This document shows positions 6,725 through 43,902 of a stretch of DNA of 64,000 nt, in pieces. Made by a program: the position numbers and the translations under genes. The number at the start of each line of letters is the position of its first letter. Positions within the stretch are counted from its first letter, which is position 1. Where the stretch lies: assembly GCF_045629545.1 (NCBI RefSeq), contig NZ_JAZQRK010000052.1, positions 1,256 to 65,255 on the forward strand. The letters are read 5' to 3'. Source of the stretch: Chryseobacterium sp. GTDB lineage: Bacteria; Bacteroidota; Bacteroidia; Flavobacteriales; Weeksellaceae. Under the pieces are notes generated by a model, which was given only the letters and a program-made list of their open reading frames with translations, did no database searches and was not told the origin of the DNA.

Positions 6725-8038
6725 TTACTTTTTTTCAGGTACGTAATTGATGATTACTCTTTGGTTAGAATTAAGATATTTTTTCGCAGCATTCTGCAAA
6801 TCTTCTTTGGTGATAGATCTGTAGATATCAATTTCTTTGTTAATCAAATTGGTATCACCCATCAATACATGATAGGTTGCCAAAGATCCAGCAATCCCCT
6901 GAATACTTGAATTAGAATTTACAAACTGGTTTTCGAATTTATTTTGAAGTTTTTGATAATCTTCCTGAGAGATCAGCGTAGTCTGTAGTTTTTTGATCTC
7001 AGCATCAATATCAGCTTGTAGTGCTTGCTTCGTAGTTGCTCCCATTGGGATAGCAAAGAACCCAAATACTCCGTAGTCTTCCATACCCAAGTTGAATGCT
7101 TGTACTTCTAAAGCTTTCTTATCCTGATCTACCAATTTTTTGTACAATACAGAAGATTTTCCACTGCTTAGGTAAGATGATAGCATATTCAAGATATACG
7201 CATCTTTATCTTTGTTAGACGGACTTCTGTAGGCAAAAATATATGCAGGAAGTTGGATGTTAGGATCTGTGACAGTTTTTTCAGTTTCCTTTGTGATAGG
7301 AGATTCTTTAGGGAAGTTCTTAGGCGTTACAGTACCTTTTTGTAACCCTCCATAGTATTCTTCAATCCATTTTTTAGTTTGCTCTGGCTTTATGTCTCCT
7401 GCAACTACTAATGTAGCGTTGTTTGGCACATAGTATTTTTTGTAGAATGCCTGAAATTCTTCCAATTTAGCCGAGTTCAAATCGTCAATAGATCCGATAA
7501 CAGAACCGCTGTAAGGGTGGTTGGTAAACAAGTTGGCTTGGATAGCATTCATCAAATTACCATACGGCTGATTGTCCATTCTCAACCTCTTTTCCTCCTT
7601 TACAACCTCTCTCTGAGTATCTACCCCAATTTGGTTAATCTCTGCGTGGCGCAATCTTTCAGCCTCCATCCAAAGTCCCAATTGCTCGTTGTTAGACGGG
7701 AAAGTTTCGTAGTAGTACGTTCTATCCATCGTAGTATTGGCATTGTTTTGACCTCCATTAGAAGAAACAATTTTAAACCATTCTCCTCTTTTAATGTTAG
7801 GCGTTCCTTCAAACAAAAGATGTTCGAAAAAATGAGCAAAACCAGTTCTTCCTTTCACTTCATCTTTAGCTCCTACATGGTACATAATCCCCGTAGTTAC
7901 TACAGGTGCTGTATTGTCTTGGTGAAGAATTACGTGTAAACCGTTTGGTAAATCATATTCTTCGAATTTAATTTGTTGTGCATTTAGCATAGCTCCAAAT
8001 AAAGCAGCCGCAGCGGCACTAAGAAGTCGTTTTTTCAT
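6725..8038 (-). CDS. M16 family zinc peptidase, catalytic subunit
   Basis: HFFEH (HxxEH) motif, NANTT, signal peptide. Confidence 0.92.
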   Translation of the reverse strand: MKKRLLSAAAAALFGAMLNAQQIKFEEYDLPNGLHVILHQDNTAPVVTTGIMYHVGAKDEVKGRTGFAHFFEHLLFEGTPNIKRGEWFKIVSSNGGQNNANTTMDRTYYYETFPSNNEQLGLWMEAERLRHAEINQIGVDTQREVVKEEKRLRMDNQPYGNLMNAIQANLFTNHPYSGSVIGSIDDLNSAKLEEFQAFYKKYYVPNNATLVVAGDIKPEQTKKWIEEYYGGLQKGTVTPKNFPKESPITKETEKTVTDPNIQLPAYIFAYRSPSNKDKDAYILNMLSSYLSSGKSSVLYKKLVDQDKKALEVQAFNLGMEDYGVFGFFAIPMGATTKQALQADIDAEIKKLQTTLISQEDYQKLQNKFENQFVNSNSSIQGIAGSLATYHVLMGDTNLINKEIDIYRSITKEDLQNAAKKYLNSNQRVIINYVPEKK

Positions 8039-31333: not shown

Positions 31334-32143
31334 TTATGAATTATTTTCTTCTGTTTGTTTCTCTTTTTGCTCTTTTAGTTCTTTATCATAAGTGTGTAGT
31401 AGATTGAAATCCTCAGTTTGCTCTATGGCTTTCATTATTTTGAAGAGTATTTCGTTAGCATTTTCCTTATCATAGTCTATATCTAATGGCTTTTTAAATT
31501 CCATAGTAGGTTTTACGCCTGTCACTTTCACGCGAAGTCCTTTTTTATCAAACGCTCTTCTAAAACCATTAATTTTGATAGGAATTACGATAGGTCTTTG
31601 GTTTTTTACCAATTTGGCCGTTCCACGTCTCCCTTGTGCAAATGCAGCAGTGGTACCTTGCGGAAAAGTAGCTACCCAACCGTTATCTAGCGCTTTCATT
31701 ATATTGTCTACTTCACCCATATCCACCATCCTATTTACATTTTGTCCCTCTGCTCTCCATGTTCTTTTTACGGTTACAGCGCCTGCCATTTTAAAAATTT
31801 TAGGTAATATGCCTTTATTCATGGTTTCTTCAGCTGCCACATAGTAGAAATCTACTCGTGGATTAAGAAGATAGATAGGATTTTTTATGGTGTTTAGATA
31901 GCCATTATTTACAGCACAGAAGGCATGAAACATTGCAGCCACATCCGCAAAGTAGGTTTGGTGGTTGGATACGAATAATACATTAGAATCTGGCAGATCT
32001 ACAAGATTTTCTGTACCAGTAATGATAAGCTTATTGAAACCGTTGAACCTTCTGTAAGAGACGATTCCCAGAATAAAAATAATAAGCCTTTTTAAAAAAT
32101 AGGGTGTACCGAAGGAGTCGGTAAAAATGTTTTTCTTGGCCAT
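31334..32143 (-). CDS. 1-acyl-sn-glycerol-3-phosphate acyltransferase family
   Basis: NHQTYFAD (HX4D), FPQGT. Confidence 0.88.
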   Translation of the reverse strand: MAKKNIFTDSFGTPYFLKRLIIFILGIVSYRRFNGFNKLIITGTENLVDLPDSNVLFVSNHQTYFADVAAMFHAFCAVNNGYLNTIKNPIYLLNPRVDFYYVAAEETMNKGILPKIFKMAGAVTVKRTWRAEGQNVNRMVDMGEVDNIMKALDNGWVATFPQGTTAAFAQGRRGTAKLVKNQRPIVIPIKINGFRRAFDKKGLRVKVTGVKPTMEFKKPLDIDYDKENANEILFKIMKAIEQTEDFNLLHTYDKELKEQKEKQTEENNS

Positions 32144-32170
32144 TGTGCAATTAACATAACAGATACAAAG

Positions 32171-32800
32171 TTACATTTTTTTAATCAATTGGCTAAACTC
32201 GCTAAGGATCATCGCTGTGGCTCCCCAAATAATATAACCATTAAAATTAATTACCGGTACTTCATGACCTCCAGCTGCTGGTAAAACCATCATTTCTGGA
32301 GAATCTGCAAGATTGAGAAACGAGGTTATGGGAAATTCTATAATCTCTACTACTTCTCTCTCTTGCAAGGTAAACTGAGGATTTTTTATGGTGTATGAAA
32401 TATAAGGATAAACCAAAAAATTGCTAGGTGGGATATAGATAGGAGATAGTTCACGGATTTTTCTTACATAATGTTTTTCCAAGCCAATTTCTTCGGTCGT
32501 TTCTCGTATCGCCGTGTCTGCAAAGTCTCTATCAGACTCTTCTCTTTTTCCGCCTGGTAAGGAAATCTGTCCGCTGTGTTTATCACGCTCGTTTTCTGTT
32601 CTTAAAATTAATGGGAAATACCATTCATCATCTTTTATATAAAGTACAATATTTACAGCCGCCAACTTAGGATTTTTGCCTAAAATTTGTTCATCAGTGA
32701 AGTTTTGCCTATAAGAAGGTGAAAAAATGCCATGTGCATTGGCTCCTCCAAGTTCTGCACTTTTTATTTTCCTTAATAAATCTTTTCCAAAACTTTTCAT
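32171..32800 (-). CDS. Nudix hydrolase, CoA pyrophosphatase type
   Basis: HSGQISLPGGK, AIRETTEEIG, IWGATA. Confidence 0.92.
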   Translation of the reverse strand: MKSFGKDLLRKIKSAELGGANAHGIFSPSYRQNFTDEQILGKNPKLAAVNIVLYIKDDEWYFPLILRTENERDKHSGQISLPGGKREESDRDFADTAIRETTEEIGLEKHYVRKIRELSPIYIPPSNFLVYPYISYTIKNPQFTLQEREVVEIIEFPITSFLNLADSPEMMVLPAAGGHEVPVINFNGYIIWGATAMILSEFSQLIKKM

Positions 32801-32925
32801 ATCTCAAATTTAGCAATATATTAGCGAGTATAAAAATGATTTTACCACAATTTCTCAATTGTGTTTTTCCACAGTCTCTAGGTAGGTACTATTACGTAGT
32901 TTCTAGGTCATTATTATCTATTATG

Positions 32926-33024
32926 TGCTGAAATGTAATTGGTTACAAATAGTATCGAAGTCAGTGATAAGTTCCGATTACCTTATATTGGTGTTTCTTT
33001 ACGAAGTATTTCGTGATAATTTTG
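32926..33024 (+). promoter_or_regulatory. Curlin-1 promoter: upstream box TGCTGAAATGTAATTGGTTA, TTACCT, GTGTTTCTTT and -7 TAatTTTG
   Basis: Boxes at 32926, 32978, 32991 and 33017; same spacings recur in the curlin-2 promoter. Confidence 0.65.
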
Positions 33025-33053
33025 TGGTGCTAATTAACCTTAAATCTTTTACC

Positions 33054-34319
33054 ATGAAAAAATTATTAACAAGTGCATATCTACTCTTGGGCTTAGGCTA
33101 TGTATATGCACAAGAAAACAAAATTGAGATTACGCAACATAATAATTATAACTATGCTGAAGTAGAGCAACTGGGATTATCACATACAAGTAACATTGAT
33201 CAAAATAATACTATTCTGGGAATATCTACAACTCAACAAGATGGCAATAAGGTAATGCTAAGCCAAGTTGGGGAAGCGGCAGAATTTACCATAGTACAAT
33301 ATGGAATTAATAACTCATCTAGTGTGTCCCAAGGATTTGCAGGCAGTTCAGATTTTTTAAGTCGTGGAGCCTATTTTTCAACTGTAAAGCAAAAACAAAT
33401 AGGTAAAAATAATCTAGTACGAGCAGAGCAATCTTCTACACAAGCAGCCAAGATTACTCAAGAACAGCAAGGAACCTCTAATATTGCAGATGCTAAGCAA
33501 CAATCTGGAGTTGGCTTATATCCAGCTAAAGATCCAATATCATCTATTATCAACCAAGTACAAATTGGTATAGCAAATACAATGAGTGCTCTACAAGAAG
33601 GTTATGGGGATATTCCATTATTAAATAATAGTGTTATTAATCAAACACAAACTGGAAATAATAATAATTTTATGGCTTCTCAAACAAGTGAAAAATTTAA
33701 TACGTCATCCAATTCTTTAATTACCCAAGATTCTCAAGCAGGTGATTATAATAAAATGGTTGCTGAACAACATGGGCCTGGCAACACAATTAATCAAACG
33801 GTACTAGGTTTAGGCGGAAATGGGAATACATTGACTGCTCAGCAAAAGGAATCTAACAATGCAATAGACCAAACTATTACTGGAGATTACAATAGGTTAT
33901 CGGTATCACAAGATGGTAGAAGTAATGCTGCAACTCAGACATCTACCGCAAGTTTCGGATGGATGAACGGAATACAAACTGGGGATAGTAATAAAATGGA
34001 TCTTACACAAATTTCTGGCGCCTTCAATGGAATCCAAATTAATCAAAAAGGGAATGGTAATGAGACTGTAATGACGCAAAAAGGGTATACCAACGCGATA
34101 GTTCTAAACCAAAAAGGTAATGAAAACATGACTATTGGAAACCAAGATGGTGGTACAAATATGATGCATCTAACACAGAGTGGTAACAAAAATAATTCAA
34201 CCGACATACAGATTGGTACTATTAACAATTCTATGGTAAACCAGCAAGGTGATGGCAATATCCATACAAGTAGCCAAATAGGAGCGCTTAATAAGATGAA
34301 TGTTTATCAAACTCATTAG
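33054..34319 (+). CDS. Long curlin-repeat protein (CsgA/CsgB-like), 421 aa
   Basis: Signal peptide MKKLL...VYAQ; many 11-residue Q-x-G-x-x-N units (QKGNGNETVMT, QKGYTNAIVLN, QSGNKNNSTDI); start moved from the track's 32925. Confidence 0.85.
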   Translation: MKKLLTSAYLLLGLGYVYAQENKIEITQHNNYNYAEVEQLGLSHTSNIDQNNTILGISTTQQDGNKVMLSQVGEAAEFTIVQYGINNSSSVSQGFAGSSDFLSRGAYFSTVKQKQIGKNNLVRAEQSSTQAAKITQEQQGTSNIADAKQQSGVGLYPAKDPISSIINQVQIGIANTMSALQEGYGDIPLLNNSVINQTQTGNNNNFMASQTSEKFNTSSNSLITQDSQAGDYNKMVAEQHGPGNTINQTVLGLGGNGNTLTAQQKESNNAIDQTITGDYNRLSVSQDGRSNAATQTSTASFGWMNGIQTGDSNKMDLTQISGAFNGIQINQKGNGNETVMTQKGYTNAIVLNQKGNENMTIGNQDGGTNMMHLTQSGNKNNSTDIQIGTINNSMVNQQGDGNIHTSSQIGALNKMNVYQTH

Positions 34320-34347
34320 AGGATCTGATAATCACTGCTAATGTTAG

Positions 34348-34379
34348 AAATCTGTTCCAATATTGGGCAGATTTTTTTT
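34348..34379 (+). terminator. Terminator after curlin 1
   Basis: aaatctgttccaa-tat-tgggcagattt followed by T run. Confidence 0.6.
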
Positions 34380-34558
34380 GCCTGTAGAACACATTTTAAA
34401 ATTTTTTATATTTATTGATCAAGATAATATTTCACAAAATATTATTTATATATTAGCATTACAATCTAATGTAATTATACCTGCTTTACTTGTGGTTTTT
34501 CACCCATATGGCAGCTCCGTATTAACACGGGTTTTCTTTATCATTAATTCATGTTACT

Positions 34559-34657
34559 TGCTGAAATGTAAATGGTTATGATAATTATTATTAATAGTGA
34601 TATTACTCATTTACCTCCTTTTGGTGTTTTATTCATGGCGTGTTCCTTCTACCTTTG
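34559..34657 (+). promoter_or_regulatory. Curlin-2 promoter: TGCTGAAATGTAAATGGTTA, TTACCT, GTGTTTTATT and -7 TAccTTTG
   Basis: Boxes at 34559, 34611, 34624 and 34650; offsets to the -7 element (91, 39, 26 nt) equal those in the curlin-1 promoter. Confidence 0.65.
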
Positions 34658-34689
34658 TGATACTAATTAACCAATTAAATTATCATATT

Positions 34690-36126
34690 ATGAAAAAACT
34701 AGTAACAGGAGCATTTGTTGTTTTATCAGCAAGTTTCGCTTTAGCTCAAAGTGGTGTTAATAATGTAAATCAAACTGGAGAATCTAATTCTACAAATGTA
34801 ACACAAAGCAGTAATGGTAGTAATGCTGGGAATGAAAATAAAACAGTTCAAGATGGAACTGGTAATATTGTAGACGTAAAACAAAAAAGTTATTCAGGTA
34901 AAAACTCAGTAGATACTAAGCAGATTGGTAACGATAACAAAGCTACTGTTTCACAAGGACAGGGTTCTAGTGTTTCGGAAGGTAATGTGGTGAATCAGAT
35001 TCAATTAAATAATGGGAATACTGCTTTTGCAACACAAACTAGTACTATTAGTGATGTCATTGAACAAAAACAGGATGGTGATCTTAATACAGTAACTGCA
35101 ACACAAGGTGATGCTTACTTTTCAACAATTAGACAAGACCAAAAAGGCAATTCAAATACAGCAAATGCTACACAAGGTTTATTGATGGGTTCATGGTCGG
35201 ATAATAGTTTAATCAACCAAGTTCAAGTAGGTGATTCCAATACAGCAAAGGGAGAACAAAGTGGTAGAGGATCTTATAATAATATTAACCAGATACAAAC
35301 TGGAGAATTTAATACTGCATCTGCTTCACAGGTAGGAAATTCTCATACTTCAGTACAAAACCAAGCAGGGGAATATAATAATGCTACAGTGCTGCAAAAT
35401 GGATCATACCAATCCGCAAATCAAACTCAAGCAGGAACTGGTAACATTGCTACATCTACGCAATCAGTATCCCACAATGGGGCAACACAGTCTCAGTCTG
35501 GTATCGATAATGAAGCTACTGTAAGCCAAAGTGGTTCATATAATACCTCTACTCAAACTCAATCCCAGAACTATAACAATGCATTTATTACTCAAACTGG
35601 AAATCGTAATATAGCGACTCAGATTCAAGATGGCACAAACAATCTTGCAACGACTACTCAGAATGGGCACAATAATGATTCAAAAATTTCTCAAAATGGA
35701 AGTAATAATGTAGGAACTGCGAGCCAAACAAATGCTTATAATGCATCTGATATTTCACAAGTAGGAAGCGGAAATACTGCAACTTCTACTCAGACGGGTA
35801 ACGGAACAGCGCTTGCTAACAACACTATTGGGATGAAGCAATTCGGAGAAGGTAATACTTCTACAGCATTACAGTCGGGAGGTTATGGTAATAACGCAGC
35901 TATCAACCAATACGGAAATCTTAACCTATCTACTGCCGATCAATTTGGAGATAATAACTCTGCTATCGTAAACCAAGGAACAGCATTAATGCATGTAGCA
36001 AGTAATGAATCCAGTATCTTACAGAATGGAACTGGTAACATGGCTTCTGTAAACCAAATGTCTAATGGTAATAGACATACTTCGTCACAAGTAGGATCAT
36101 TTAATACGGTTATTGTTAATCAGTAA
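34690..36126 (+). CDS. Long curlin-repeat protein (probable major CsgA-like subunit), 478 aa
   Basis: Signal peptide MKKLV...ALAQ; almost entirely Q-x-G-x-x-N-x-A-x-x-x-Q repeats; Q/N/S/G/T-rich. Confidence 0.9.
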   Translation: MKKLVTGAFVVLSASFALAQSGVNNVNQTGESNSTNVTQSSNGSNAGNENKTVQDGTGNIVDVKQKSYSGKNSVDTKQIGNDNKATVSQGQGSSVSEGNVVNQIQLNNGNTAFATQTSTISDVIEQKQDGDLNTVTATQGDAYFSTIRQDQKGNSNTANATQGLLMGSWSDNSLINQVQVGDSNTAKGEQSGRGSYNNINQIQTGEFNTASASQVGNSHTSVQNQAGEYNNATVLQNGSYQSANQTQAGTGNIATSTQSVSHNGATQSQSGIDNEATVSQSGSYNTSTQTQSQNYNNAFITQTGNRNIATQIQDGTNNLATTTQNGHNNDSKISQNGSNNVGTASQTNAYNASDISQVGSGNTATSTQTGNGTALANNTIGMKQFGEGNTSTALQSGGYGNNAAINQYGNLNLSTADQFGDNNSAIVNQGTALMHVASNESSILQNGTGNMASVNQMSNGNRHTSSQVGSFNTVIVNQ

Positions 36127-36145
36127 TCATCTTTAAAAATTCTTT

Positions 36146-36182
36146 AAAAGGAAGGAAAGGACTTATGTTTTTTCCTTCTTTT
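36146..36182 (+). terminator. Terminator after curlin 2
   Basis: gaaggaaa...tttccttc hairpin followed by T run. Confidence 0.55.
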
Positions 36183-36834
36183 GTTTTTACAATAAGGATT
36201 CATTGGCCTAACGCATAGATTATCAATTAGATTTTTTTACAACATTTTATCTTTTTGTTAAACGGTTCTTTTAATAACTCTTAGATAAATGATGATGCAG
36301 GATAATCATTTTGTTTTATATTTTTACATTAGTGCAACAAAGAGGATTAGTATGGGTTTTTATACAATTAATGGATTGAAAAACTAAATTATGCTGGATA
36401 ATAATCTTTCGCTTATTTGTAGTCAAGGATTTTAGGTTTTTTCCATATACCTTAAAACAATGATTTTTAAACAAAATGCAGTGATTTTATATAAATACTC
36501 AGTAGAGGTGTTTGGTGAAAAATTACGTTAACCTATTTTTGTAAAAGAATGAATTTGAAACCTAAACTTTTCTCTTAAATCTTTTAAATACAAAAATTAA
36601 TCTCATAAATTATATAAAAGTATATCTTTTTATTTCCCAATAATTTCTTATTGTATTTTCATCAATATTCTTATAGATTGTATTAAAGGTTATATAAACC
36701 GAATTATATTTAATAATTGTGCATTGTTATCCGTATATATACGCAATAATGTAATCATAAATCATGATATTTAATTTCTAACTGATTTGCGTGTTTCTTT
36801 GGTCACTGATATCAAGTACCTTTATTAAAAAAAT

Positions 36835-37236
36835 ATGACCATTTTGAAGCTCTTATTTAGCCTGCTGTTTTTAGCTAGTTTTTTAGCAAAAGCGCAACAG
36901 ATTGATTGGCAAAAGGTGAATAGTTCTACTATTGTAAGTCTTTTGGAATCTAAAAGCATTGAACGAAACGAGGCGGAATCTTCATTTTCCCAATTAGGAA
37001 ATCATAATCATGCAATGATTTTGATGAACGAAAATTCTAATGTTAACGTGAAGCATACAGGTGAGTACAATACGACTATATATAACAATGCATCAACCAA
37101 CAAAGCAGCTACTATAGAAGTTTCTTCTTCAGGAAATAATAATATCATAGATATCACTGGTGCCAATAGCCTTTCTAAAGAAATGAAAATTAATATTGTT
37201 GGTGATAACAAAACAATTTTTATTAGAAATTATTAA
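36835..37236 (+). CDS. Short exported curlin-like protein (possible CsgB-like nucleator)
   Basis: Signal peptide; degenerate repeats SQLGNHNHA, HTGEYNTT, SSGNNNII, IVGDNKT; first gene of the csgEFG unit. Confidence 0.55.
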   Translation: MTILKLLFSLLFLASFLAKAQQIDWQKVNSSTIVSLLESKSIERNEAESSFSQLGNHNHAMILMNENSNVNVKHTGEYNTTIYNNASTNKAATIEVSSSGNNNIIDITGANSLSKEMKINIVGDNKTIFIRNY

Positions 37237-37245
37237 CAATTTGAG

Positions 37246-37977
37246 ATGAAAACTTATTTTTCTTTAGCAATATGTATTTGTTGCTTGTCCACTTCATTTT
37301 TCGTGTATGCCCAAAATGAAGTTAATATTAATACTAAGATTGAAAAGCAAACATTAGAGAAGCAAATAAAACTAAAGGCAGTAGTTACTAATGATGGCGA
37401 TACTTATCAGGATCTAAATTACCTTTTTATTGCTATCAAAAAAGGCGGCACTGGAAACCTTTCTAATAATAAACAATCCGGAAAATTTAATGTTAAGTCA
37501 CAAGAAATCAAAGTACTTTCTGAAGTAAATATAAATCTAGAGGATACAGATGCGCTTAAAGTGTACTTGTATATAAGAGATGAAGAAAGTAATACTTTAA
37601 TAAGGAAAGATAGCTTAGAAATTGATCAAACTGTTTTTAGACCATCTGCAGAGAAGGTTGAGAAAGAAGCGAGCTCCGAACTAAAAGGGTTAACCATAGA
37701 TGAAACAAAAACTAAGGTAGGCAAAGATTTTTATGATCTATTTTATATAAAATATAGCCAAATACCCAACAAAAGTAATTCTACAATTACCGTTACCGAA
37801 CTTCCTACAAGAGGAACAAGTAGCCAGATACATATTGTAATGGAGGATAGTATAGTCTATAGTTTTCCTACAAACCCTTCAGATGAATATCTAGCCGAAC
37901 AAGTAGAATATACTTTTCAATATATTAATAATTTTAATGCTCAAAAAAAATTTGTTAGGAACGAATTTATGTACTAA
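37246..37977 (+). CDS. csgE: CsgE-family curli assembly protein with N-terminal CsgH-like domain
   Basis: C-terminal LKGLTIDETKTKVGKDFYDLFY is CsgE-like; N-terminal NYLFIAIKKGGTGNLSNNKQSGKF resembles CsgH. Confidence 0.75.
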   Translation: MKTYFSLAICICCLSTSFFVYAQNEVNINTKIEKQTLEKQIKLKAVVTNDGDTYQDLNYLFIAIKKGGTGNLSNNKQSGKFNVKSQEIKVLSEVNINLEDTDALKVYLYIRDEESNTLIRKDSLEIDQTVFRPSAEKVEKEASSELKGLTIDETKTKVGKDFYDLFYIKYSQIPNKSNSTITVTELPTRGTSSQIHIVMEDSIVYSFPTNPSDEYLAEQVEYTFQYINNFNAQKKFVRNEFMY

Positions 37978-37997
37978 AAAAAACTAAAAACAATACC

Positions 37998-38405
37998 ATG
38001 AAAACTTTTTACATTTGTTTGTTGCTTTTTGCTGGCCTATTTTTAGGAAAATCTCAGCAATTCGTGTACAAACCCGTTAACCCCAATTTTGGTGGAGATT
38101 CCTACAACTATTCTTGGTTATTAAGCTCTGCAAGTGCCCAAAATCAATTCGATAACAAAAGTGCATCTAGTGGTTACAATGCTGCAAGCTCTTTATCTAG
38201 TTTTACAGATAGTTTAAATAGGCAAGTGCTAAGTCAATTGTCTAGTAAATTGTTTCAAAATTCTTTTGGAGAGAATGGTGTGGAGGCAGGAAATTATGTT
38301 TTTGGATCGCTCTATGTACAAGTTACAAACACCAGTAACGGAACCATGATTAGTATCTTAGATACCAATACAGGAGAGCAATCTGAAGTTGTGATTCCAA
38401 AATAA
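37998..38405 (+). CDS. csgF: Curli assembly component CsgF
   Basis: QQFVYKPVNPNFGGDSYNYSWLLSSASAQN signature. Confidence 0.93.
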   Translation: MKTFYICLLLFAGLFLGKSQQFVYKPVNPNFGGDSYNYSWLLSSASAQNQFDNKSASSGYNAASSLSSFTDSLNRQVLSQLSSKLFQNSFGENGVEAGNYVFGSLYVQVTNTSNGTMISILDTNTGEQSEVVIPK

Positions 38406-38421
38406 AAAAACGAAATATACA

Positions 38422-39783
38422 ATGAATAAATGTAACACAATCAGGATTTTATTCTGTATGATTATTTTTTCTACACTTCAATCATGTAAATCGCTTATTG
38501 GTTTGCCTACAAGCACAGAAAAATCTACAATAGGTGAAATTTCTACATATACAAAAGAACTAAAAAATTTACCATTGCCCAAAGAGAAAGTAGTAGTGGG
38601 GGTATATAAATTTAGAGATCAGACCGGGCAGTATAAAGCAGCAGAAGTGGGCAGTAATTGGAGTACTGCAGTGCCACAAGGTACTACCACAATACTTATA
38701 AAAGCGTTAGAAGATAGCCGTTGGTTTATCCCTATAGAGAGAGAAAATATTGCAAATCTTCTCAACGAAAGGCAAATTATACGCTCTACTCGCCAAGAGT
38801 ATCTAAAAGAGATTGATAAAAATAATCCTTCTTTGCCACCTCTTTTGTATGCGGGGGTACTTTTGGAAGGAGGTGTGATTTCTTATGATAGCAATGTAGT
38901 GACTGGTGGATTGGGCGCTAGATATTTTGGCATCGGAGCTTCTACACAATACAGACAAGATAGAATCACTATTTATCTTAGAGCAGTTTCTACCTTAAAC
39001 GGTGAGATTTTAAAAACAGTGTATGTTTCAAAATCAATTCTTTCTACAAGTGTGAATGGAAGTTTCTTTAGATATATAGACTCAGAAAAATTATTAGAAG
39101 CAGAAGTTGGACTTACCCAGAATGAACCCATACATTTAGCTGTAACAGATGCAATAGAAAAAGCAGTAAAGAATTTGATTGTTGAAGGAATTAAATCCAA
39201 TATTTGGGGTAAATCTATGGACGACACAGATAAATACAAACAACTGATAGAGGATTACAATGTGGAAGTTGAAAAAAATAATGCTAAAATTATAGGAAGC
39301 CAATTTGATGAGATTAGTAGACCAAAATTTTCTGTTTTTGCTAATGCAGAGATTGCCCAAATAAAAGGAGATTACATCAATCCAGTTTCTAGATTCGGAG
39401 GAAAATTTGGAACAAAATTCTTTCTTAATAAAAACTTTAATATAGAAGGTAACGTCAATCTTTTTACTTTAGAAAACACCGAAATTATTACACGTTCATT
39501 TGTAGTTCCCGAAGTAAATCTAGAATATTTTATGATGCCAAATTTCAAATTTTCTCCCTATATCTACGCAGGTATGGGTGGATTGTTTTCTAAGAATAAA
39601 TCTTTCTACAAGGCACAAGTAGGTGGAGGTCTAGAATATATGATCCAGAAAAATATTGCACTAAGACTTTCTAGTCAATATGATCTTGGTTTTACAGACA
39701 ATTGGGAAGGTTTTGTAAATGGGAAAAGACAAGATCAAGCAATTCGATTTGGTTTTGGTATCAACTACTATATAGGAAAATAA
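38422..39783 (+). CDS. csgG: Curli secretion channel CsgG with C-terminal beta-barrel extension
   Basis: Lipobox LQSC; VGVYKFRDQTGQYK, STAVPQG, LEDSRWF..ERE..LLNERQIIR, EGGVISYD, GGLGARYFGIG. Confidence 0.94.
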   Translation: MNKCNTIRILFCMIIFSTLQSCKSLIGLPTSTEKSTIGEISTYTKELKNLPLPKEKVVVGVYKFRDQTGQYKAAEVGSNWSTAVPQGTTTILIKALEDSRWFIPIERENIANLLNERQIIRSTRQEYLKEIDKNNPSLPPLLYAGVLLEGGVISYDSNVVTGGLGARYFGIGASTQYRQDRITIYLRAVSTLNGEILKTVYVSKSILSTSVNGSFFRYIDSEKLLEAEVGLTQNEPIHLAVTDAIEKAVKNLIVEGIKSNIWGKSMDDTDKYKQLIEDYNVEVEKNNAKIIGSQFDEISRPKFSVFANAEIAQIKGDYINPVSRFGGKFGTKFFLNKNFNIEGNVNLFTLENTEIITRSFVVPEVNLEYFMMPNFKFSPYIYAGMGGLFSKNKSFYKAQVGGGLEYMIQKNIALRLSSQYDLGFTDNWEGFVNGKRQDQAIRFGFGINYYIGK

Positions 39784-39794
39784 AAATATTAACC

Positions 39795-41300
39795 ATGAAA
39801 AATTTATTTAAAATTATTACTTTACTTGTTCTCGTTTTTTCGCATTGGTCATGTAATGAAGAGCTTACTATACAAAATAGTAATGGAAAACTTAGAGGTA
39901 AAGTAGTAAAAAAAGAAACTAATGAACCTATTGCTAACGTAAAAGTATTTACTACGCCTTCTACACAAGCTGTTTTCACGGGAACAGATGGCACCTTCGA
40001 TATAGGGGAAGTGCCATTGGGAGATTACTCAGTAAAGGCAGAGCTTACGGGTTATGTTACAAGTTATCAAGCTGTCAATATACAAAATGAAGCACAAGTA
40101 GTTTCTGTTGTTTTCGAATTAAGTGATGATGATTCTCAAAATACCGCTCCTACTACTCCTATTTTATTAAGTCCTGTGGATAATGCACAAGATCAACCTC
40201 TTTCGGTAGAATTAAAATGGGATTGTAGCGATGCGGATGCTAATGATGTTTTAAAATATAAGCTTATTGTTAAAAATAATGTGAATACAGATGTTATCGA
40301 GGTTAATGATATTACTACTAAAAATCATACTTTATCAGATCTAAAATATGGAGTAAGCTACTTTTGGCAAATCTCTGTAAATGATGGTATACATGCTGAT
40401 GTATTGAGCCCGACTTTTAAGTTTACAACAACTTCCACACCTCTTAATAGGTATCATTATGTAAAAAAAGAAAATGGAAATTACGTAATTATGTCTACAG
40501 ATGAAGCGGGTTCTAGTTTTCAGTTGACAAGCTCTTCTTATAATAGTTGGAGGCCAAGAAAAAATAATAATGCAAATCTAATAGCTTACTTAAGAACTGA
40601 TGGTGGAGCCAATCATATTTATACAGCAAAACCAGATGGTTCTGATGCTTTTAAAGTAACTCAAATTCCTGTAGGCGGTTTTAATAATGCAGAGATGGAC
40701 TTTTCGTGGAGTACGAATGGTAATTCCTTCGTCTACCCTTATTTTGATAAGTTATACAAAATAAATAAAGATGGAAGTGGGCAAGAATTAGTATATACTA
40801 CTCCAGATGGAAGTCTTATTACAGAATGCGATTGGAGCTATGATAACAGCAAAGTGGCAATAAAAACCAATAACTATAATGGTTACAATGCCAAGATTAT
40901 TATTATTGATATGCTAGGAAATATTTTGCAAACAGTGCTCTCTAGTGGTTCCGGTGCAAGCGGTGGGCTCAATTTCTCTGTAGATGGGCAAAAATTGCTT
41001 TATACTAAAGATGTTTCTGGACATGAGGATGCGAACTACAGACAGCTCAATTCTCATGTATTTATTTTTAATCTCGCTACTAATACGATACAAGATATTT
41101 CAGAGTTGAGCAGTAAACCAGCGGGAACTAATGATCTAGACGCCAGATTTTCACCTAACAATGCTCAAATTATCCTCATGAATACTTCTAATGACGGTAT
41201 TTCTCAAAAAAATGTTATAGTGGTTACACTTGGAACTACAGGATCAAATTTTACAAGAGCTATTTTATTTAGTAATGCAGAAATGCCAGATTACGAATGA
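39795..41300 (+). CDS. Lipoprotein with carboxypeptidase-regulatory-like, FN3-like and TolB/PD40-like propeller domains
   Basis: Lipobox WSC; GKVVKKETNEPIANVKV; YFWQISV; repeated WS.NG / FS.DG / FSPN motifs. Confidence 0.78.
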   Translation: MKNLFKIITLLVLVFSHWSCNEELTIQNSNGKLRGKVVKKETNEPIANVKVFTTPSTQAVFTGTDGTFDIGEVPLGDYSVKAELTGYVTSYQAVNIQNEAQVVSVVFELSDDDSQNTAPTTPILLSPVDNAQDQPLSVELKWDCSDADANDVLKYKLIVKNNVNTDVIEVNDITTKNHTLSDLKYGVSYFWQISVNDGIHADVLSPTFKFTTTSTPLNRYHYVKKENGNYVIMSTDEAGSSFQLTSSSYNSWRPRKNNNANLIAYLRTDGGANHIYTAKPDGSDAFKVTQIPVGGFNNAEMDFSWSTNGNSFVYPYFDKLYKINKDGSGQELVYTTPDGSLITECDWSYDNSKVAIKTNNYNGYNAKIIIIDMLGNILQTVLSSGSGASGGLNFSVDGQKLLYTKDVSGHEDANYRQLNSHVFIFNLATNTIQDISELSSKPAGTNDLDARFSPNNAQIILMNTSNDGISQKNVIVVTLGTTGSNFTRAILFSNAEMPDYE

Positions 41301-41316
41301 TCTACCTCTTTTCAGC

Positions 41317-41353
41317 AAAAAAAATCAAAATCTTATCGATTTTGATTTTTTTT
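41317..41353. terminator. Bidirectional terminator between the curli operon and the LuxR gene
   Basis: aaaaaaaatcaaaatc-ttatc-gattttgattttttt. Confidence 0.7.
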
Positions 41354-41370
41354 GTTTTAAAAATATGAAT

Positions 41371-42021
41371 TTAATCTATGATATTATTTTCCAGTGCATA
41401 TTTCACGACACCAACAGAATTTTTAACGTTCAGTTTCATCAATATTCTTTTCCTATGCGTTTCCACAGTATTGATGCTAATGAATAATTGTTGACAAATA
41501 TCTTTGCTGCTAAATCCGTTGCAGATTAATTTTAAAATTTCCATTTCACGCTTGGTAAGTGGATCTTTAAAATTGTATTTCTGTTTTTGTTGTTCTTCAC
41601 TAATGAAATTAATCATCATTTCTTTGGCATATTCGCAGACATATATTTCATTACTGAATAAAGTTTTTATAGCTTTCAAAAATTCTTCATAACCACTATC
41701 TCTGTCTAGATAGCATTTTATTCCTTTACCAAATAATTTTCTGATGGTGATAACATCGTAGTGATTTCCAATTATAATAATTTTAATTCCTTCCTCTCTT
41801 GAGATTATTTCTTCTACGTATTTGTAGATTTCGGTAAGAAGTAGATTGTTAGAACTAAGTAGAATGTATTCTGGTGTTTCTCTAGAAATATGGTGATATA
41901 ATTTTTCTGCAGAATCTACGATATTTATATCACCGAAAAGCTTTTCCTGAGTTAGCAATTTTAGTAAACCCTGTGTATACAACAAAGGTCCATCATAGAT
42001 GGTTAAATTGGGAGTCATCAT
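41371..42021 (-). CDS. NarL/LuxR-family regulator with degenerate receiver domain
   Basis: C-terminal LTKREMEILKLI..GFSSKDI..LFISINTVETHRKRIL; receiver lacks the canonical Asp; start uncertain (42039, 42021 or 42018). Confidence 0.85.
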   Translation of the reverse strand: MMTPNLTIYDGPLLYTQGLLKLLTQEKLFGDINIVDSAEKLYHHISRETPEYILLSSNNLLLTEIYKYVEEIISREEGIKIIIIGNHYDVITIRKLFGKGIKCYLDRDSGYEEFLKAIKTLFSNEIYVCEYAKEMMINFISEEQQKQKYNFKDPLTKREMEILKLICNGFSSKDICQQLFISINTVETHRKRILMKLNVKNSVGVVKYALENNIID

Positions 42022-42336
42022 GGTAGTTTTAGTTAACATAAATGTACGAAAAACATCTCATATAAATGTGATTTTTGGTGACAAATAATATATGAATAGT
42101 ATGATTTATTTGAATAATTTGTATTATTTTATTAATTTTAATGTAATAATAATTTTAATAAATTTATTATTATAAGATAATGATATTGGCGAAAATTATA
42201 CTCTTTCGAAGTTATATTTATACTGAAAATAGGAGTAGAAAAAGCAAATTTAAATGTAATTTTAAGAGCTTTTTTTACTGAAAATTGAAATGTTTGCACA
42301 AAAAAACCTCCAAGAAAACTGGAGGTTTGGTTTTTT

Positions 42337-43902
42337 TTAATTAGAAAATCCTATCAATTCTTCCTTATCCGAATTGAAAATTCTGTATTCTAAATATTTA
42401 AAAGAATCCCTAGGCACAATGGTTACCCATTTTTTATACTTCATAAACCATTTCATCTGTATACTCATGATACCTTTGGTAAGATACGCTTCTACAAAGG
42501 GATGCACGTGGAGGTAAAGTTTTCCATTATCCTTCTGCATTATGGTTCTGATAGTGTCGCCCATTTTTTCAACAATAACGATAGGAGCTACAATTTCTCC
42601 ATCCTTATTCGGGTTTTCTTCTTTGGTATCTATTTGTTTTTCAGCACGATTTCTTTGTCTGGTAATCTGGATAAGTCCAAATTTACTTGGTGGTAAAATT
42701 TTGTGTCGTGCTTTGTCTCGACTCATCTCATTCTTCAGATGCTCGAATAGATCTTTTCTGTGGTCTGCGTTTATCATATCGATAAAATCTACCACGATAA
42801 TACCTCCCATATCTCGGAGGCGGAGCTGTCTTGCAATCTCTGTGGCTGCCATCTTATTTACGTTGAGTGCGTGATCCTTATTAGTAGGACTGCTAGCAGA
42901 GTTGGAAATATTATTTCCAGAGTTTACATCAACTACGTGTAGTGCTTCAGTGTGTTCTATCACCAGGTAAGCACCTTTTGAACTAGGAATATTTACGTGT
43001 TTTCCAAAGCTTTGTTTTAGCTGTTTTTCCACGTTATAATATTCGAGTAGAGGAACGTGAGAATCATAAAACTGAACAATATTTTTTCTTTCAGGAGCAA
43101 TTACTTCTACGTAATCCTTCATTCCGTTTACCATCTGTTCATCATCACAGATAATATTTACAAAATCCTGGTTGAAATTGTCTCTCAGTATGGAAGATGC
43201 TTTATCATCTTCACTCAATACTCTAGAGGGTACTTTGTTCTTCTCAATGTTTTTGAAGGTATTTTCCCACTTCTGAACTAGCTGATTCATATCATTATGC
43301 AAATCAGCTACTTTTTTGCCCTCAGCAACGGTTCTTATGATCACTCCGAAACCTTCAGGTTTTATACTGTCGATTAGGGTGCGAAGTCTTTCTTTTTCCT
43401 CAGAACTTCTTATTTTTTTAGAAATAGAAACTTTATTATCAAAAGGAATTAAAACCAAAAAACGCCCCGTAAGCGAGATCTGTGTTGATATTCTTGGTCC
43501 TTTTGTAGAAATAGGTTCTTTGGTTATTTGCAAAAGAATTACGTCATCTTTGGCAATGATCTTGTCTATAGTTCCATTTTTATCCAATTCGGGCTGAAGC
43601 TCGAAATTTTTCAAACTAGAAGTGTTTTGCTTCTTAGCAACAGTGTCTTTCAAGAATTTTTTGTAGGTAGCAAACTGTGGCCCAAGATCCTGATAGTGTA
43701 AAAATGCATCTTTTTCATATCCAATATTTACAAAGGCAGCATTAAGGTTGGGAGCTAGTTTTTTTACTTTACCTATAAATAAGTCTCCGACAACAAAATC
43801 ATTTTTGTCTTCTTCCTCATGAAGTTCACATAGTCTTCCGTCTTCTAGTAAAGCAATTTTTGTAAAATCACCTTCGTGCGAAATTATAAGTTCTTTCTTC
43901 AT
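42337..43902 (-). CDS. rng: Rne/Rng family ribonuclease
   Basis: S1 domain AAFVNIG..KDAFLH, KEPISTKGPR, VVDVNSG, GGIIVVDFIDM. Confidence 0.93.
   Translation of the reverse strand: MKKELIISHEGDFTKIALLEDGRLCELHEEEDKNDFVVGDLFIGKVKKLAPNLNAAFVNIGYEKDAFLHYQDLGPQFATYKKFLKDTVAKKQNTSSLKNFELQPELDKNGTIDKIIAKDDVILLQITKEPISTKGPRISTQISLTGRFLVLIPFDNKVSISKKIRSSEEKERLRTLIDSIKPEGFGVIIRTVAEGKKVADLHNDMNQLVQKWENTFKNIEKNKVPSRVLSEDDKASSILRDNFNQDFVNIICDDEQMVNGMKDYVEVIAPERKNIVQFYDSHVPLLEYYNVEKQLKQSFGKHVNIPSSKGAYLVIEHTEALHVVDVNSGNNISNSASSPTNKDHALNVNKMAATEIARQLRLRDMGGIIVVDFIDMINADHRKDLFEHLKNEMSRDKARHKILPPSKFGLIQITRQRNRAEKQIDTKEENPNKDGEIVAPIVIVEKMGDTIRTIMQKDNGKLYLHVHPFVEAYLTKGIMSIQMKWFMKYKKWVTIVPRDSFKYLEYRIFNSDKEELIGFSN

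Follow-up and report, generated by a model that had tools for sequence, protein, structure and literature searches.

The curli cluster described here has close counterparts in those of the Bacteroidota type, which carry CsgA/B and CsgEFG together with several long curlins, and surveys of these clusters state that csgC and csgD are absent from Bacteroidetes (Dueholm 2012, PMC3521004; Adv Sci 2025 review, PMC12822426). The repeat number of published curlins extends from 4 to 62, the distribution showing secondary peaks near 15 and 22, and curlins of 15–22 repeats, in several copies per genome, are among those already described (Sleutel 2023, PMC10192328). A CsgH-like subfamily has also been reported in Bacteroidetes, in a study in which a CxC motif defines CsgC and a distant pair of cysteines defines CsgH (Taylor 2016, PMC4838910). 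For the curli operon of Elizabethkingia meningoseptica Em3, from the same family Weeksellaceae as the present locus, the genes were listed only, with no genetics and no description of fused domains, and the operon-carrying strain made more biofilm (PMC5602931).

The window, a stretch of 64,000 nucleotides from Chryseobacterium sp., contains a member of this Bacteroidota-type group at positions 33054–42039. We consider it very likely that the locus is a complete and intact curli (type VIII secretion) gene cluster of the standard Bacteroidota/Flavobacteriales build, and this assessment extends to the mechanism set out below as a whole. It is the sole curli locus of this small-genome Chryseobacterium, and curlin repeats are absent from the rest of the genome. 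The locus consists of the following features.

32801..33053, + strand, promoter and leader of curlin 1, with boxes GCTGAAATGTAA at 32927 and GTGTTTCTTT at 32991 and a Bacteroidota −7-type box TAATTTTG at 33017
33054..34319, + strand, curlin 1, 421 aa, CsgA/B-like, with a Sec signal peptide; Curlin_rpt (PF07012) 1.5e-6
34320..34689, + strand, promoter and leader of curlin 2, with boxes at 34560 and 34624 and a −7 box TACCTTTG at 34650
34690..36126, + strand, curlin 2, 478 aa, the main curlin, with a signal peptide; Curlin_rpt 6.5e-22 in four stretches
36147..36182, + strand, intrinsic-terminator-like hairpin of 16 pairs with a T run, ending the curlin 2 transcript
36387..36834, + strand, conserved part of the non-coding spacer upstream of the accessory operon, ending GCGTGTTTCTTT ... 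TACCTTTA
36835..37236, + strand, short secreted protein, 133 aa, candidate minor curlin or nucleator; weak NCBIfam matches to CsgB (7e-4) and CsgA (2e-3)
37246..37977, + strand, CsgC/H-like + CsgE fusion, 243 aa; PF10627 1.1e-15
37998..38405, + strand, CsgF, 135 aa; PF10614 2.7e-39
38422..39783, + strand, CsgG lipoprotein channel with predicted barrel, 453 aa; PF03783 6e-64 (cut-off 20.8 bits)
39795..41300, + strand, companion lipoprotein, 501 aa; PF13715 3.6e-13, PF13620 8e-11, fn3 5e-3, TIGR02800 1.6e-8
41317..41353, no strand assigned, perfect 16-bp A/T hairpin with loop TTATC and A and T runs at its flanks
41371..42039, − strand, LuxR/NarL-family regulator, 222 aa, candidate curli regulator; GerE 6.7e-20

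The gene content and order given by the initial annotation were borne out, with all eight genes found at the places and sizes it had assigned. The curli identity that it proposed also held, as the CsgG, CsgF, CsgE and Curlin_rpt models all exceed their Pfam gathering scores at the E-values listed. The structural genes are all co-oriented on the + strand, and the LuxR gene is convergent with them. Spacers, terminators and common boxes divide the structural genes into three transcription units, namely curlin 1 alone, curlin 2 alone and a tight accessory operon in which the short protein, the CsgH–CsgE fusion, CsgF, the barrel-fused CsgG and the lipoprotein follow one another with gaps of 9–20 nt. 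The promoter boxes of the two curlins are near-identical and equally spaced, and they are partly repeated upstream of the short gene. The last 38–60 nt upstream of curlin 2 are similar to the region 5′ of the single curlin in two other loci (L019 and L020). The full spacer between curlin 2 and the accessory operon (36127–36834) measures 708 bp at 23% G+C and has no ORF of at least 60 aa and no Rfam match; its conserved part is 80.6% identical to the closest relative, L046, in a single alignment that continues through the operon. The A/T hairpin at 41317..41353, which was read directly from the sequence since its few G–C pairs caused the terminator scan to miss it, lies where the lipoprotein and LuxR genes converge and is a bidirectional terminator.

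The locus shares with the curli systems of E. coli and Salmonella the CsgG core, the pore-plug N-terminus of CsgF, the CsgE domain, curlin repeats of the form Q-x-G-x-x-N-x-A-x3-Q, a chaperone of the CsgC fold and a LuxR-family regulator with an atypical receiver. It differs in that the curlins have 421 and 478 aa and ~18–20 repeat lengths, compared with 151 aa and 5 repeats, and in that the structural genes run in one direction in three units. The CsgC/H-like domain is carried on CsgE and lacks cysteines, CsgG bears a predicted OmpA-like barrel, the locus has one lipoprotein more and no clear CsgB, and the regulator, which is not a CsgD equivalog, is convergent rather than divergent. The contrasts with csgBAC/csgDEFG drawn in the initial annotation (subunit size, fused domains and an extra lipoprotein) were confirmed by HMM matches, by comparison of genomes and by an AlphaFold model of high confidence. 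Its description of the architecture as expanded was not supported as a mark of something unusual among Bacteroidota: CsgG with a predicted barrel and a companion lipoprotein with the same N-terminal domain are the norm in the sampled loci, and the CsgH–CsgE fusion is the norm in Flavobacteriales. Only two traits are lineage-specific here, the second curlin (curlin 1) and the large curlin with its ~700-bp spacer, and both are shared with L046. The locus is genuine and represents a known system in a variant typical of the phylum.

Curlin 2 has a mature part of ~20 repeat lengths, with QxGxxNxAxxxQ units every 11 or 22 aa and 23 motif matches, and shares 59% identity with the large curlin of L046. 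Curlin 1, which is 31% identical to curlin 2, confines its regular repeats to the C-terminal third, the N-terminal two thirds being degenerate; it contains 19 N-x-h-x-h-x-Q half-repeat motifs, and its full motifs, spaced 11/22 aa apart, number 15. The single curlins of relatives resemble curlin 2 more than curlin 1, and curlin 1 is an extra paralogue. No Pfam domain other than Curlin_rpt was detected in either curlin. Both resemble CsgA R15.5 of Pontibacter korlensis and other long Bacteroidota curlins (PMC10192328) in their look-alike half-repeats and 11-residue periodicity, but the degenerate N-terminal two thirds of curlin 1 set it apart from that group.

The fusion protein consists of a CsgC/H-like β-sandwich (residues 28–126, nt 37327–37623), a disordered linker and a CsgE domain (residues ~146–241, nt 37681–37968). 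The PF10627 match covers residues 146–235 (cut-off 25 bits), and the AlphaFold model has two domains at an overall pLDDT of 90.6, with the α/β CsgE domain modelled at pLDDT >90. Foldseek ranks CsgC 2xsk (TM 0.79) and CsgH 2n59 (TM 0.69) first and second in the PDB. The NCBIfam CsgH model NF041112 matches at 6e-8 (32.7 bits, just under the cut-off of 35) and the CsgC model at 1e-3, and the profile of the N-domain matches 2xsk at 2e-5. The model and the profiles together describe the N-domain as a seven-stranded Ig-like β-sandwich with sequence similarity to CsgC and CsgH. It shares this fold with Rhodopseudomonas palustris CsgH and E. coli CsgC, but those are free proteins, whereas here the fold is an N-terminal domain on CsgE. 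The mature N-domain (residues 23–130) contains no cysteine, and thus neither the CxC motif nor the distant pair, which places it in a third, cysteine-free CsgC/CsgH subtype. The architecture is the Flavobacteriales form and is retained, with full-length matches among cluster representatives (50% identity) numbering over 100; elsewhere in Bacteroidota csgH stands as a gene of its own or CsgE is fused to LysM, and free CsgH exceeding the NCBIfam cut-off occurs in other Bacteroidota loci (L023, L028 and L040).

CsgF aligns with E. coli CsgF 6l7a over residues 6–131 (1e-9) and keeps the N-terminal NPNFGG...LL.SA.AQN. CsgG, with its core at residues 49–263, matches E. coli CsgG 3x2r at 6e-65 over residues 10–264 and has a lipobox cysteine with no acidic residue at positions +2 to +5. 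At its C-terminus lies a predicted OmpA-like outer-membrane barrel of ~165 aa (residues 289–453, nt 39286–39780). This copy scores 25.1 bits against Pfam OMP_b-brl (E 2.3e-5), under the cut-off of 28.7; the model matches 19 of 24 aligned homologous barrels at E ≤ 0.01, the best at 8.5e-9, and the best PDB matches of the barrel profile are OmpA, OprF, NspA and OmpX, weak at E ~5e-3. A barrel is present on 29 of the 31 full-length CsgG genes in the sampled Bacteroidota curli loci, and Atlas clusters agree; CsgG with a predicted barrel is the norm in these loci.

The lipoprotein gene starts 11 nt past the csgG stop, and its product comprises a lipobox cysteine followed by N-E-E, a prealbumin-like CarboxypepD_reg domain, an Fn3-like domain and a β-propeller of the PD40/TolB type. 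The label TolB-like given earlier applies to the propeller only, where TIGR02800 matches far under its cut-off, and does not suit the remainder of the protein. The E. meningoseptica operon encodes a homologue, P0365, that is 64% identical, and a related lipoprotein with the same N-terminal domain occurs in most sampled Bacteroidota curli loci. When 401 Bacteroidota genomes were searched for the long form, all 11 full-length homologues adjoined csgG in CsgF-positive genomes, and none was found in the ~370 CsgF-negative genomes.

The LuxR protein has a degenerate receiver-like N-domain without a Response_reg match, an architecture of the CsgD and VpsT class. It matches the CsgD model NF007505 at 4.5e-15, but with 55.9 bits against a cut-off of 250 and with higher scores for other response-regulator models; its PDB matches are DesR, VraR, NarL and VpsT. 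Of the 7 congener curli loci compared, 6 have an orthologue; 4 of 5 curli-minus congeners lack one, and the fifth (G010) retains a stop-containing remnant. The curli block and the LuxR gene have been gained and lost as one.

Two components allow more than one reading of their role. The short protein is the likeliest candidate for a nucleator or minor subunit of the fibres, as it has three invariant Q-x-G-x-x-N motifs at the 21–24-aa spacing of curlin repeats and weak matches to both CsgB and CsgA, and the locus holds no alternative candidate nucleator. It also has a conserved C-terminal GxNSxSxxMxIxxxGxxxTxFxRNY, and in Flavobacteriales loci its gene keeps its place directly 5′ of the fusion gene. 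Its nearest Atlas clusters carry the name ‘Curlin associated repeat’, and its top Atlas match, though not the protein itself, has a ‘minor curlin subunit’ structural neighbour, which is a lead only. It is possible, although we are doubtful, that the protein is instead an accessory factor that merely shares Asn/Gln-rich motifs, such as a fibre cap or terminator, a CsgF adaptor or a secreted regulator; its gene lies in the machinery operon apart from the curlins, profile–profile comparison with the curlins (hhalign) is not significant at a probability of 3%, no Pfam Curlin_rpt match was found and its matches in a PDB profile search are noise. The earlier term short curlin-like is softened, with both NCBIfam scores far under cut-off and no match to any Pfam model. 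The lipoprotein, for its part, is predicted from its signal to be flipped to the cell surface, where it may act as an anchor, organiser or modulator of the fibres. A polar residue and two or more acidic residues at +2 to +5 after the lipobox cysteine define the Bacteroidota surface-export signal (LES), for which experiments in Capnocytophaga, Flavobacterium and Bacteroides demonstrated that it directs lipoproteins to the cell surface (Lauber 2016, PMC5080379). The C-N-E-E-L of the present lipoprotein matches this signal, all Flavobacteriales long forms have a polar and two acidic residues at +2 to +4, and at least one acidic residue at +2 to +5 is found in 27 of 27 lipoprotein copies (at least two in 17), whereas CsgG of the same loci has none (0 of 31). 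We think it rather unlikely that the protein faces the periplasm as a TolB/LpoB-like scaffold between CsgG (or the CsgE cap) and either the cell wall or quality control in the periplasm, a placement suggested by the propeller type, by the single acidic residue after the cysteine in the short forms of other families, and by the fusion of the peptidoglycan-binding LysM to CsgE in other lineages, from which a link to the cell wall seems important for the machine.

It appears highly improbable that this genome carries the locus in a silent or decaying state, or that the locus products form non-amyloid adhesive fibres. The locus sequence was found in DNA metagenome runs only, none from RNA, and 9 of the 24 sampled congeners lack the locus, one of them keeping the broken regulator, which indicates that the block is dispensable and often lost. 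Against this, none of the eight ORFs is broken and signal peptides are in place, the machinery proteins share 74–93% identity with those of the closest relative, the 450 bp of upstream non-coding DNA are 80% conserved and the curlins retain the canonical motif at exact 11/22-residue spacing.

In the functional curli machine that we favour, the LuxR protein, with its pseudo-receiver, probably drives the three box-sharing promoters. The curlins would cross the inner membrane via Sec and be held unpolymerised in the periplasm by the CsgC/H-like domain, whose fusion to CsgE would position it at the cap that closes CsgG on the periplasmic side. They would then diffuse through the CsgG pore, where an Asn–aromatic pair is kept in the constriction and the conserved CsgF N-terminus would form a second one, and polymerise outside the cell into β-solenoid amyloid fibres. 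The small predicted OmpA-like barrels, one per CsgG protomer, probably anchor or space the pore in the outer membrane. The surveys cited above (PMC3521004, PMC12822426) are silent on three features that occur commonly across our sampled loci, namely the CsgH-like domain on CsgE, the predicted barrel on CsgG and the companion lipoprotein. We found no paper on the barrel, the CsgH–CsgE fusion or the lipoprotein, and the view of this system as under-characterised is fair. The barrel, the fusion of chaperone and cap, and the extra lipoprotein are usual components of curli in this bacterial group, yet they appear to be unstudied.

The locus comprises eight genes, and the ORF listing places them where the initial annotation had put them:

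Curli locus and associated sequence features (window positions; genes from the ORF listing)
32927–33040, shared upstream boxes before curlin1
33054–34319, + strand, curlin1 (421 aa)
34560–34673, shared upstream boxes before curlin2, same spacing
34690–36126, + strand, curlin2 (478 aa)
36127–36834, non-coding spacer (708 bp)
36147–36182, terminator of 16 pairs after curlin2
36791–36826, shared upstream boxes before the short gene, same spacing
36835–37236, + strand, short protein (133 aa)
37246–37977, + strand, CsgH–CsgE fusion (243 aa)
37998–38405, + strand, CsgF
38422–39783, + strand, CsgG (453 aa)
39286–39780, extra C-terminal domain of CsgG (residues 289–453)
39795–41300, + strand, companion lipoprotein (501 aa)
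41317–41353, perfect 16-bp A/T hairpin between the convergent lipoprotein and LuxR genes
41371–42039, − strand, LuxR-family gene, convergent

In Pfam, Curlin_rpt matched curlin1 (1.5e-6) and curlin2 (6.5e-22), and the CsgE (1.1e-15), CsgF (2.7e-39) and CsgG (6.2e-64) models also scored above their gathering scores; the lipoprotein matched CarboxypepD_reg and the regulator matched GerE. The curli assignment, which the initial annotation had staked on the CsgG and CsgF models, thus holds, and the locus is a member of the curli type VIII secretion systems (T8SS) and of the known Bacteroidota curli clusters (PMC3521004, PMC12822426); the operon of a sister genus is listed in a genome report (PMC5602931). 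Export of the curlins by a T9SS was also considered and rejected, as Pfam detected no C-terminal sorting domain and the locus encodes the full CsgEFG set. Within the genome (assembly of 2.93 Mb, 99.6% complete), CsgG and curlin repeats are confined to this one locus. Named homologues are nearly all from Chryseobacterium, with Elizabethkingia and Daejeonia also among them. The sequence was found only in DNA metagenome runs from animal gut, feces and sediment, and no RNA runs containing it were found.

The architecture was compared across the phylum with iterated HMMs built from the domains of the window, which were used to map 25 CsgF-matching loci and seven from close relatives, of which six are congeners and one (G028) belongs to another family. 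Of the 401 Bacteroidota genomes sampled, 27 have a CsgF above the cut-off, and matches at E ≤ 0.001 occur in 22 of 179 genera. A barrel domain is present on 29 of 31 full-length CsgG proteins; the two barrel-less proteins are ~300 aa long and come with weak CsgF matches. CsgG with the barrel occurs in 15 of the 24 sampled congeners and in one other family of the order. This survey, together with widespread homologues of the same architecture, contradicts the notion that the expanded architecture is unique to this organism.

The CsgG core aligns with E. coli CsgG along the entire solved protein and retains the constriction, which reads S-N-W here versus S-N-F in E. coli, while CsgF retains its N-terminal segment NPNFGG...LL.SA.AQN. 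The retained constriction and CsgF segment argue, at the level of sequence, for the same pore architecture as in E. coli. The extra domain that follows the core matched Pfam OMP_b-brl at 2.3e-5 in isolation, under the cut-off; the same model matched 19 of 24 homologous barrel domains (best 8.5e-9), and the best PDB matches of the domain profile were all small outer-membrane barrels, namely OmpA, OprF, NspA and OmpX (E ~5e-3). The protein falls in Bacteroidota "CsgG/HfaB" clusters of the ESM Atlas that have the same domain, and one Spirochaetota CsgG cluster there has an Opacity-type barrel. Towards the end of the CsgG barrel, the motif D-x-x-D-G-x3-G-x2-(N/D)-D-x2-W is nearly invariant in all 24 aligned sequences (alignment A3); it may be a loop that binds metal or makes contacts. 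One mapped locus, L028, also encodes a second protein of 485 aa (209–1666) with a CsgG-type barrel and no CsgG core, just past its companion lipoprotein. Literature searches for a CsgG barrel returned nothing relevant.

The N-terminal half of the 243-aa protein matched NCBIfam models for CsgH-like proteins (6e-8) and CsgC (1e-3). An AlphaFold prediction from the single sequence was unusable (pLDDT 43.7) and was repeated with an alignment of 72 diverse full-length relatives (A1), which raised the pLDDT to 90.6. The resulting model consists of a seven-strand sandwich (residues 28–126), a disordered linker (135–143) and an α/β CsgE domain (150–241). Foldseek against the PDB ranked E. coli CsgC first (2xsk, TM 0.79, rmsd 2.7) and R. 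palustris CsgH second (2n59, TM 0.69), and a profile of the N-domain only (A2) matched CsgC at 2e-5. An exhaustive search recovered 598 relatives as 50%-identity representatives, and more than 100 of the best 150 of these were full-length matches of ~240–260 aa, labelled by NCBI as either "CsgH" or "CsgE". In the phylum-wide sample, the fusion is carried by the Flavobacteriales loci, and a free CsgH gene was found in three other lineages (61.7, 55.5 and 36.1 bits, above the NCBIfam cut-off). Among ten non-Flavobacteriales CsgE proteins scanned, four were fusions to LysM, a peptidoglycan-binding domain, above the Pfam cut-off; these proteins, from loci L025, L027, L033 and L035, have an N-terminal LysM (1.7e-7 to 1.7e-12) replacing the CsgH-like domain.

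Because it has no cysteine, the CsgC/H-like domain of the window fits neither of the cysteine-based definitions of CsgC and CsgH by Taylor 2016. That study noted a Bacteroidetes CsgH-like subfamily and does not mention the fusion (PMC4838910), and Bacteroidetes are without csgC according to Dueholm 2012 (PMC3521004). Literature searches for a CsgH–CsgE or LysM–CsgE fusion returned nothing relevant. The natural and widespread occurrence of the CsgH–CsgE fusion argues that the chaperone and CsgE act at the same place.

The 133-aa protein gave weak matches to CsgB and CsgA in NCBIfam. In the Flavobacteriales loci, its gene lies directly upstream of the fusion gene and encodes a product of 132–173 aa, with three invariant Q-x-G-x-x-N motifs 21–24 residues apart and a strongly conserved C-terminus (alignment A5). 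In the ESM Atlas, the closest clusters bear curlin-repeat labels (score 0.95), and a "minor curlin subunit" family that is a structural neighbour of the top Atlas match serves as a lead only. A profile search of the PDB returned noise only (an ankyrin protein, E 0.07), and hhalign against the Chryseobacterium curlins gave a probability of 3%; the output of an iterated HMM (88 ORFs) was set aside after the model had drifted towards curlins. Our preferred reading is a CsgB-like nucleator, to which we give an even chance, short of established membership. In one congener, at 7596–7984 of L017 (contig G016:C15), the gene is split over two reading frames, by either a frameshift or an assembly error.

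Curlin1 and curlin2 both carry Sec signal peptides, are rich in Asn, Gln, Gly, Ser and Thr, and share 31% identity. The pattern Q-x-[G]-x-x-N-x-h-x3-Q matched 23 times in curlin2, at a spacing of 11 or 22 residues over its whole length, and 15 times in curlin1, regularly in the last third only. Six other Chryseobacterium genomes have a single curlin at the same position, of ~250–272 aa (419 aa in G016), and the large curlin of the closest relative (L046) is 59% identical to curlin2. The single curlin of the congeners and the resemblance of the L046 protein to curlin2 indicate that the ancestral gene is curlin2, which became larger in this sub-lineage, and that curlin1 is an extra paralogue. 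The subunit size, one of the differences listed in the initial annotation, is not novel, since published curlins range from 4 to 62 repeats, in a distribution that has secondary peaks around 15 and 22, and a Bacteroidota curlin of 15.5 repeats has been studied by cryo-EM (Sleutel 2023, PMC10192328). Some Bacteroidota loci (L034, L025 and L039) contain five or six tandem curlin genes of 240–450 aa each, in agreement with the many copies per genome already published (PMC10192328).

The genes from the short protein to the lipoprotein form a five-gene operon with internal spacers of 9–20 nt. A scan for sigma-70 promoters found 51 sites versus 49.7 in shuffles and is uninformative for a Bacteroidota genome, and −7 boxes were therefore read directly from the sequence. 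Ahead of curlin1, curlin2 and the short gene alike, GTGTTT(C/T)(T/A)TT is followed ~20 nt on by TAnnTTT(G/A). The shared boxes include GTGTTTCTTT; both curlin leaders additionally have GCTGAAATGTAA and CTAATTAACC in common, neither of which was found in the loci of other congeners. The adjacent LuxR protein may bind at the shared boxes. The spacer preceding the operon has 23% G+C and no ORF. It is shared with L046 only, its last 450 bp being 80.6% identical and as conserved as coding DNA, and other congeners have ~160–200 bp at this position. No match was obtained with Rfam over 32000–43000, which includes the spacer, or with blastn and tblastx of the spacer against seven Chryseobacterium loci, four other Flavobacteriales loci and the rest of the window. 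The spacer is probably a large regulatory region; it recalls the long csgD–csgB intergenic region of E. coli and may likewise be a regulatory hub.

The companion lipoprotein, whose gene starts 11 nt past csgG, has only generic names in databases and consists of a lipobox, a prealbumin-like CarboxypepD_reg domain, an Fn3-like domain and a PD40/TolB-type propeller. A search of the same 401 genomes with the lipoprotein of the window contradicts chance adjacency: apart from the copy in this genome, it recovered 11 full-length homologues, all in CsgF-positive genomes with csgF on the same contig, and the ~370 CsgF-negative genomes yielded none except one partial match. Most mapped loci have a lipoprotein with the same N-terminal domain. 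Its long form (~500 aa) occurs in Flavobacteriales and in four additional families, and its short form, mostly ~210–240 aa, elsewhere. The genomes in this survey are related and not independent of each other, but the pattern extends over at least six families. At positions +2 to +5 after the lipid Cys, at least one acidic residue is present in 27 of 27 companion lipoproteins (two or more in 17 of 27) versus 0 of 31 CsgG proteins with a recognisable lipobox, and the Flavobacteriales long forms all read [S/N/T/D]-E-[E/D]. Lauber 2016 (PMC5080379) showed that the Bacteroidota lipoprotein export signal drives surface exposure, with the form K-(D/E)2 for Capnocytophaga, SDDFE for F. johnsoniae and SDDDD for B. 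fragilis. Given the match of the acidic pattern to this signal, the companion lipoprotein is predicted to be surface-exposed. Transthyretin and the transthyretin-like YedX inhibit CsgA polymerisation in vitro (PMC12925577). Literature searches for a link between CarboxypepD_reg and curli returned nothing relevant, and a companion lipoprotein with a surface signal and strict co-occurrence was not found in the searchable literature.

The convergent LuxR protein combines a GerE HTH with a receiver-like N-terminal half that fails Pfam Response_reg; read by eye, its sequence (EYILLSSNN) has Ser in place of the expected phospho-acceptor Asp. An orthologue is present in six of the seven congener curli loci compared and missing in four of five curli-minus congeners, which have ~30% paralogues only. 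In the fifth, G010, a 64% identical orthologue with an internal TAA stop lies beside a NUDIX gene (L048, G010:C2, 10612–11262) and resembles an orphan regulator in decay; the 8-kb curli block is missing in full, precisely from the interval that separates these two genes. In G003, a 521-aa gene adjoins the NUDIX gene. These patterns of co-presence and co-loss show that the LuxR gene is part of the same gain/loss island as the curli block.

For this genome, the outcome is ordinary annotation, one intact curli island gained and lost among congeners, and its value lies in leads at the level of the family. For a phylum that abounds in soil, water and guts, two candidate new parts of the machine are CsgG with its fused barrel and the lipoprotein, which strictly co-occurs with curli and carries a surface-export signal. 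CsgG is also a commercial nanopore, so that a variant with a natural membrane anchor may be of practical interest. E. coli and Salmonella account for nearly all curli research. The CsgH–CsgE fusion bears on how their CsgC delivers unfolded CsgA to the CsgE/CsgG gate without periplasmic amyloid, and it offers a single polypeptide for a structural test of chaperone-to-gate transfer. We raise, as a tentative and rather doubtful proposal, that Bacteroidota curli form a distinct T8SS subtype with three conserved additions: an OmpA-like barrel ring fused to CsgG, an anti-amyloid CsgC/H chaperone tethered to CsgE and a surface-exposed lipoprotein with an invariant prealbumin/transthyretin-like core. 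If so, fibres at the cell surface would need the lipoprotein to anchor, nucleate or restrain them, and the "Rosetta-stone" fusion would imply direct hand-over of subunits from chaperone to CsgE at the pore in all curli systems.
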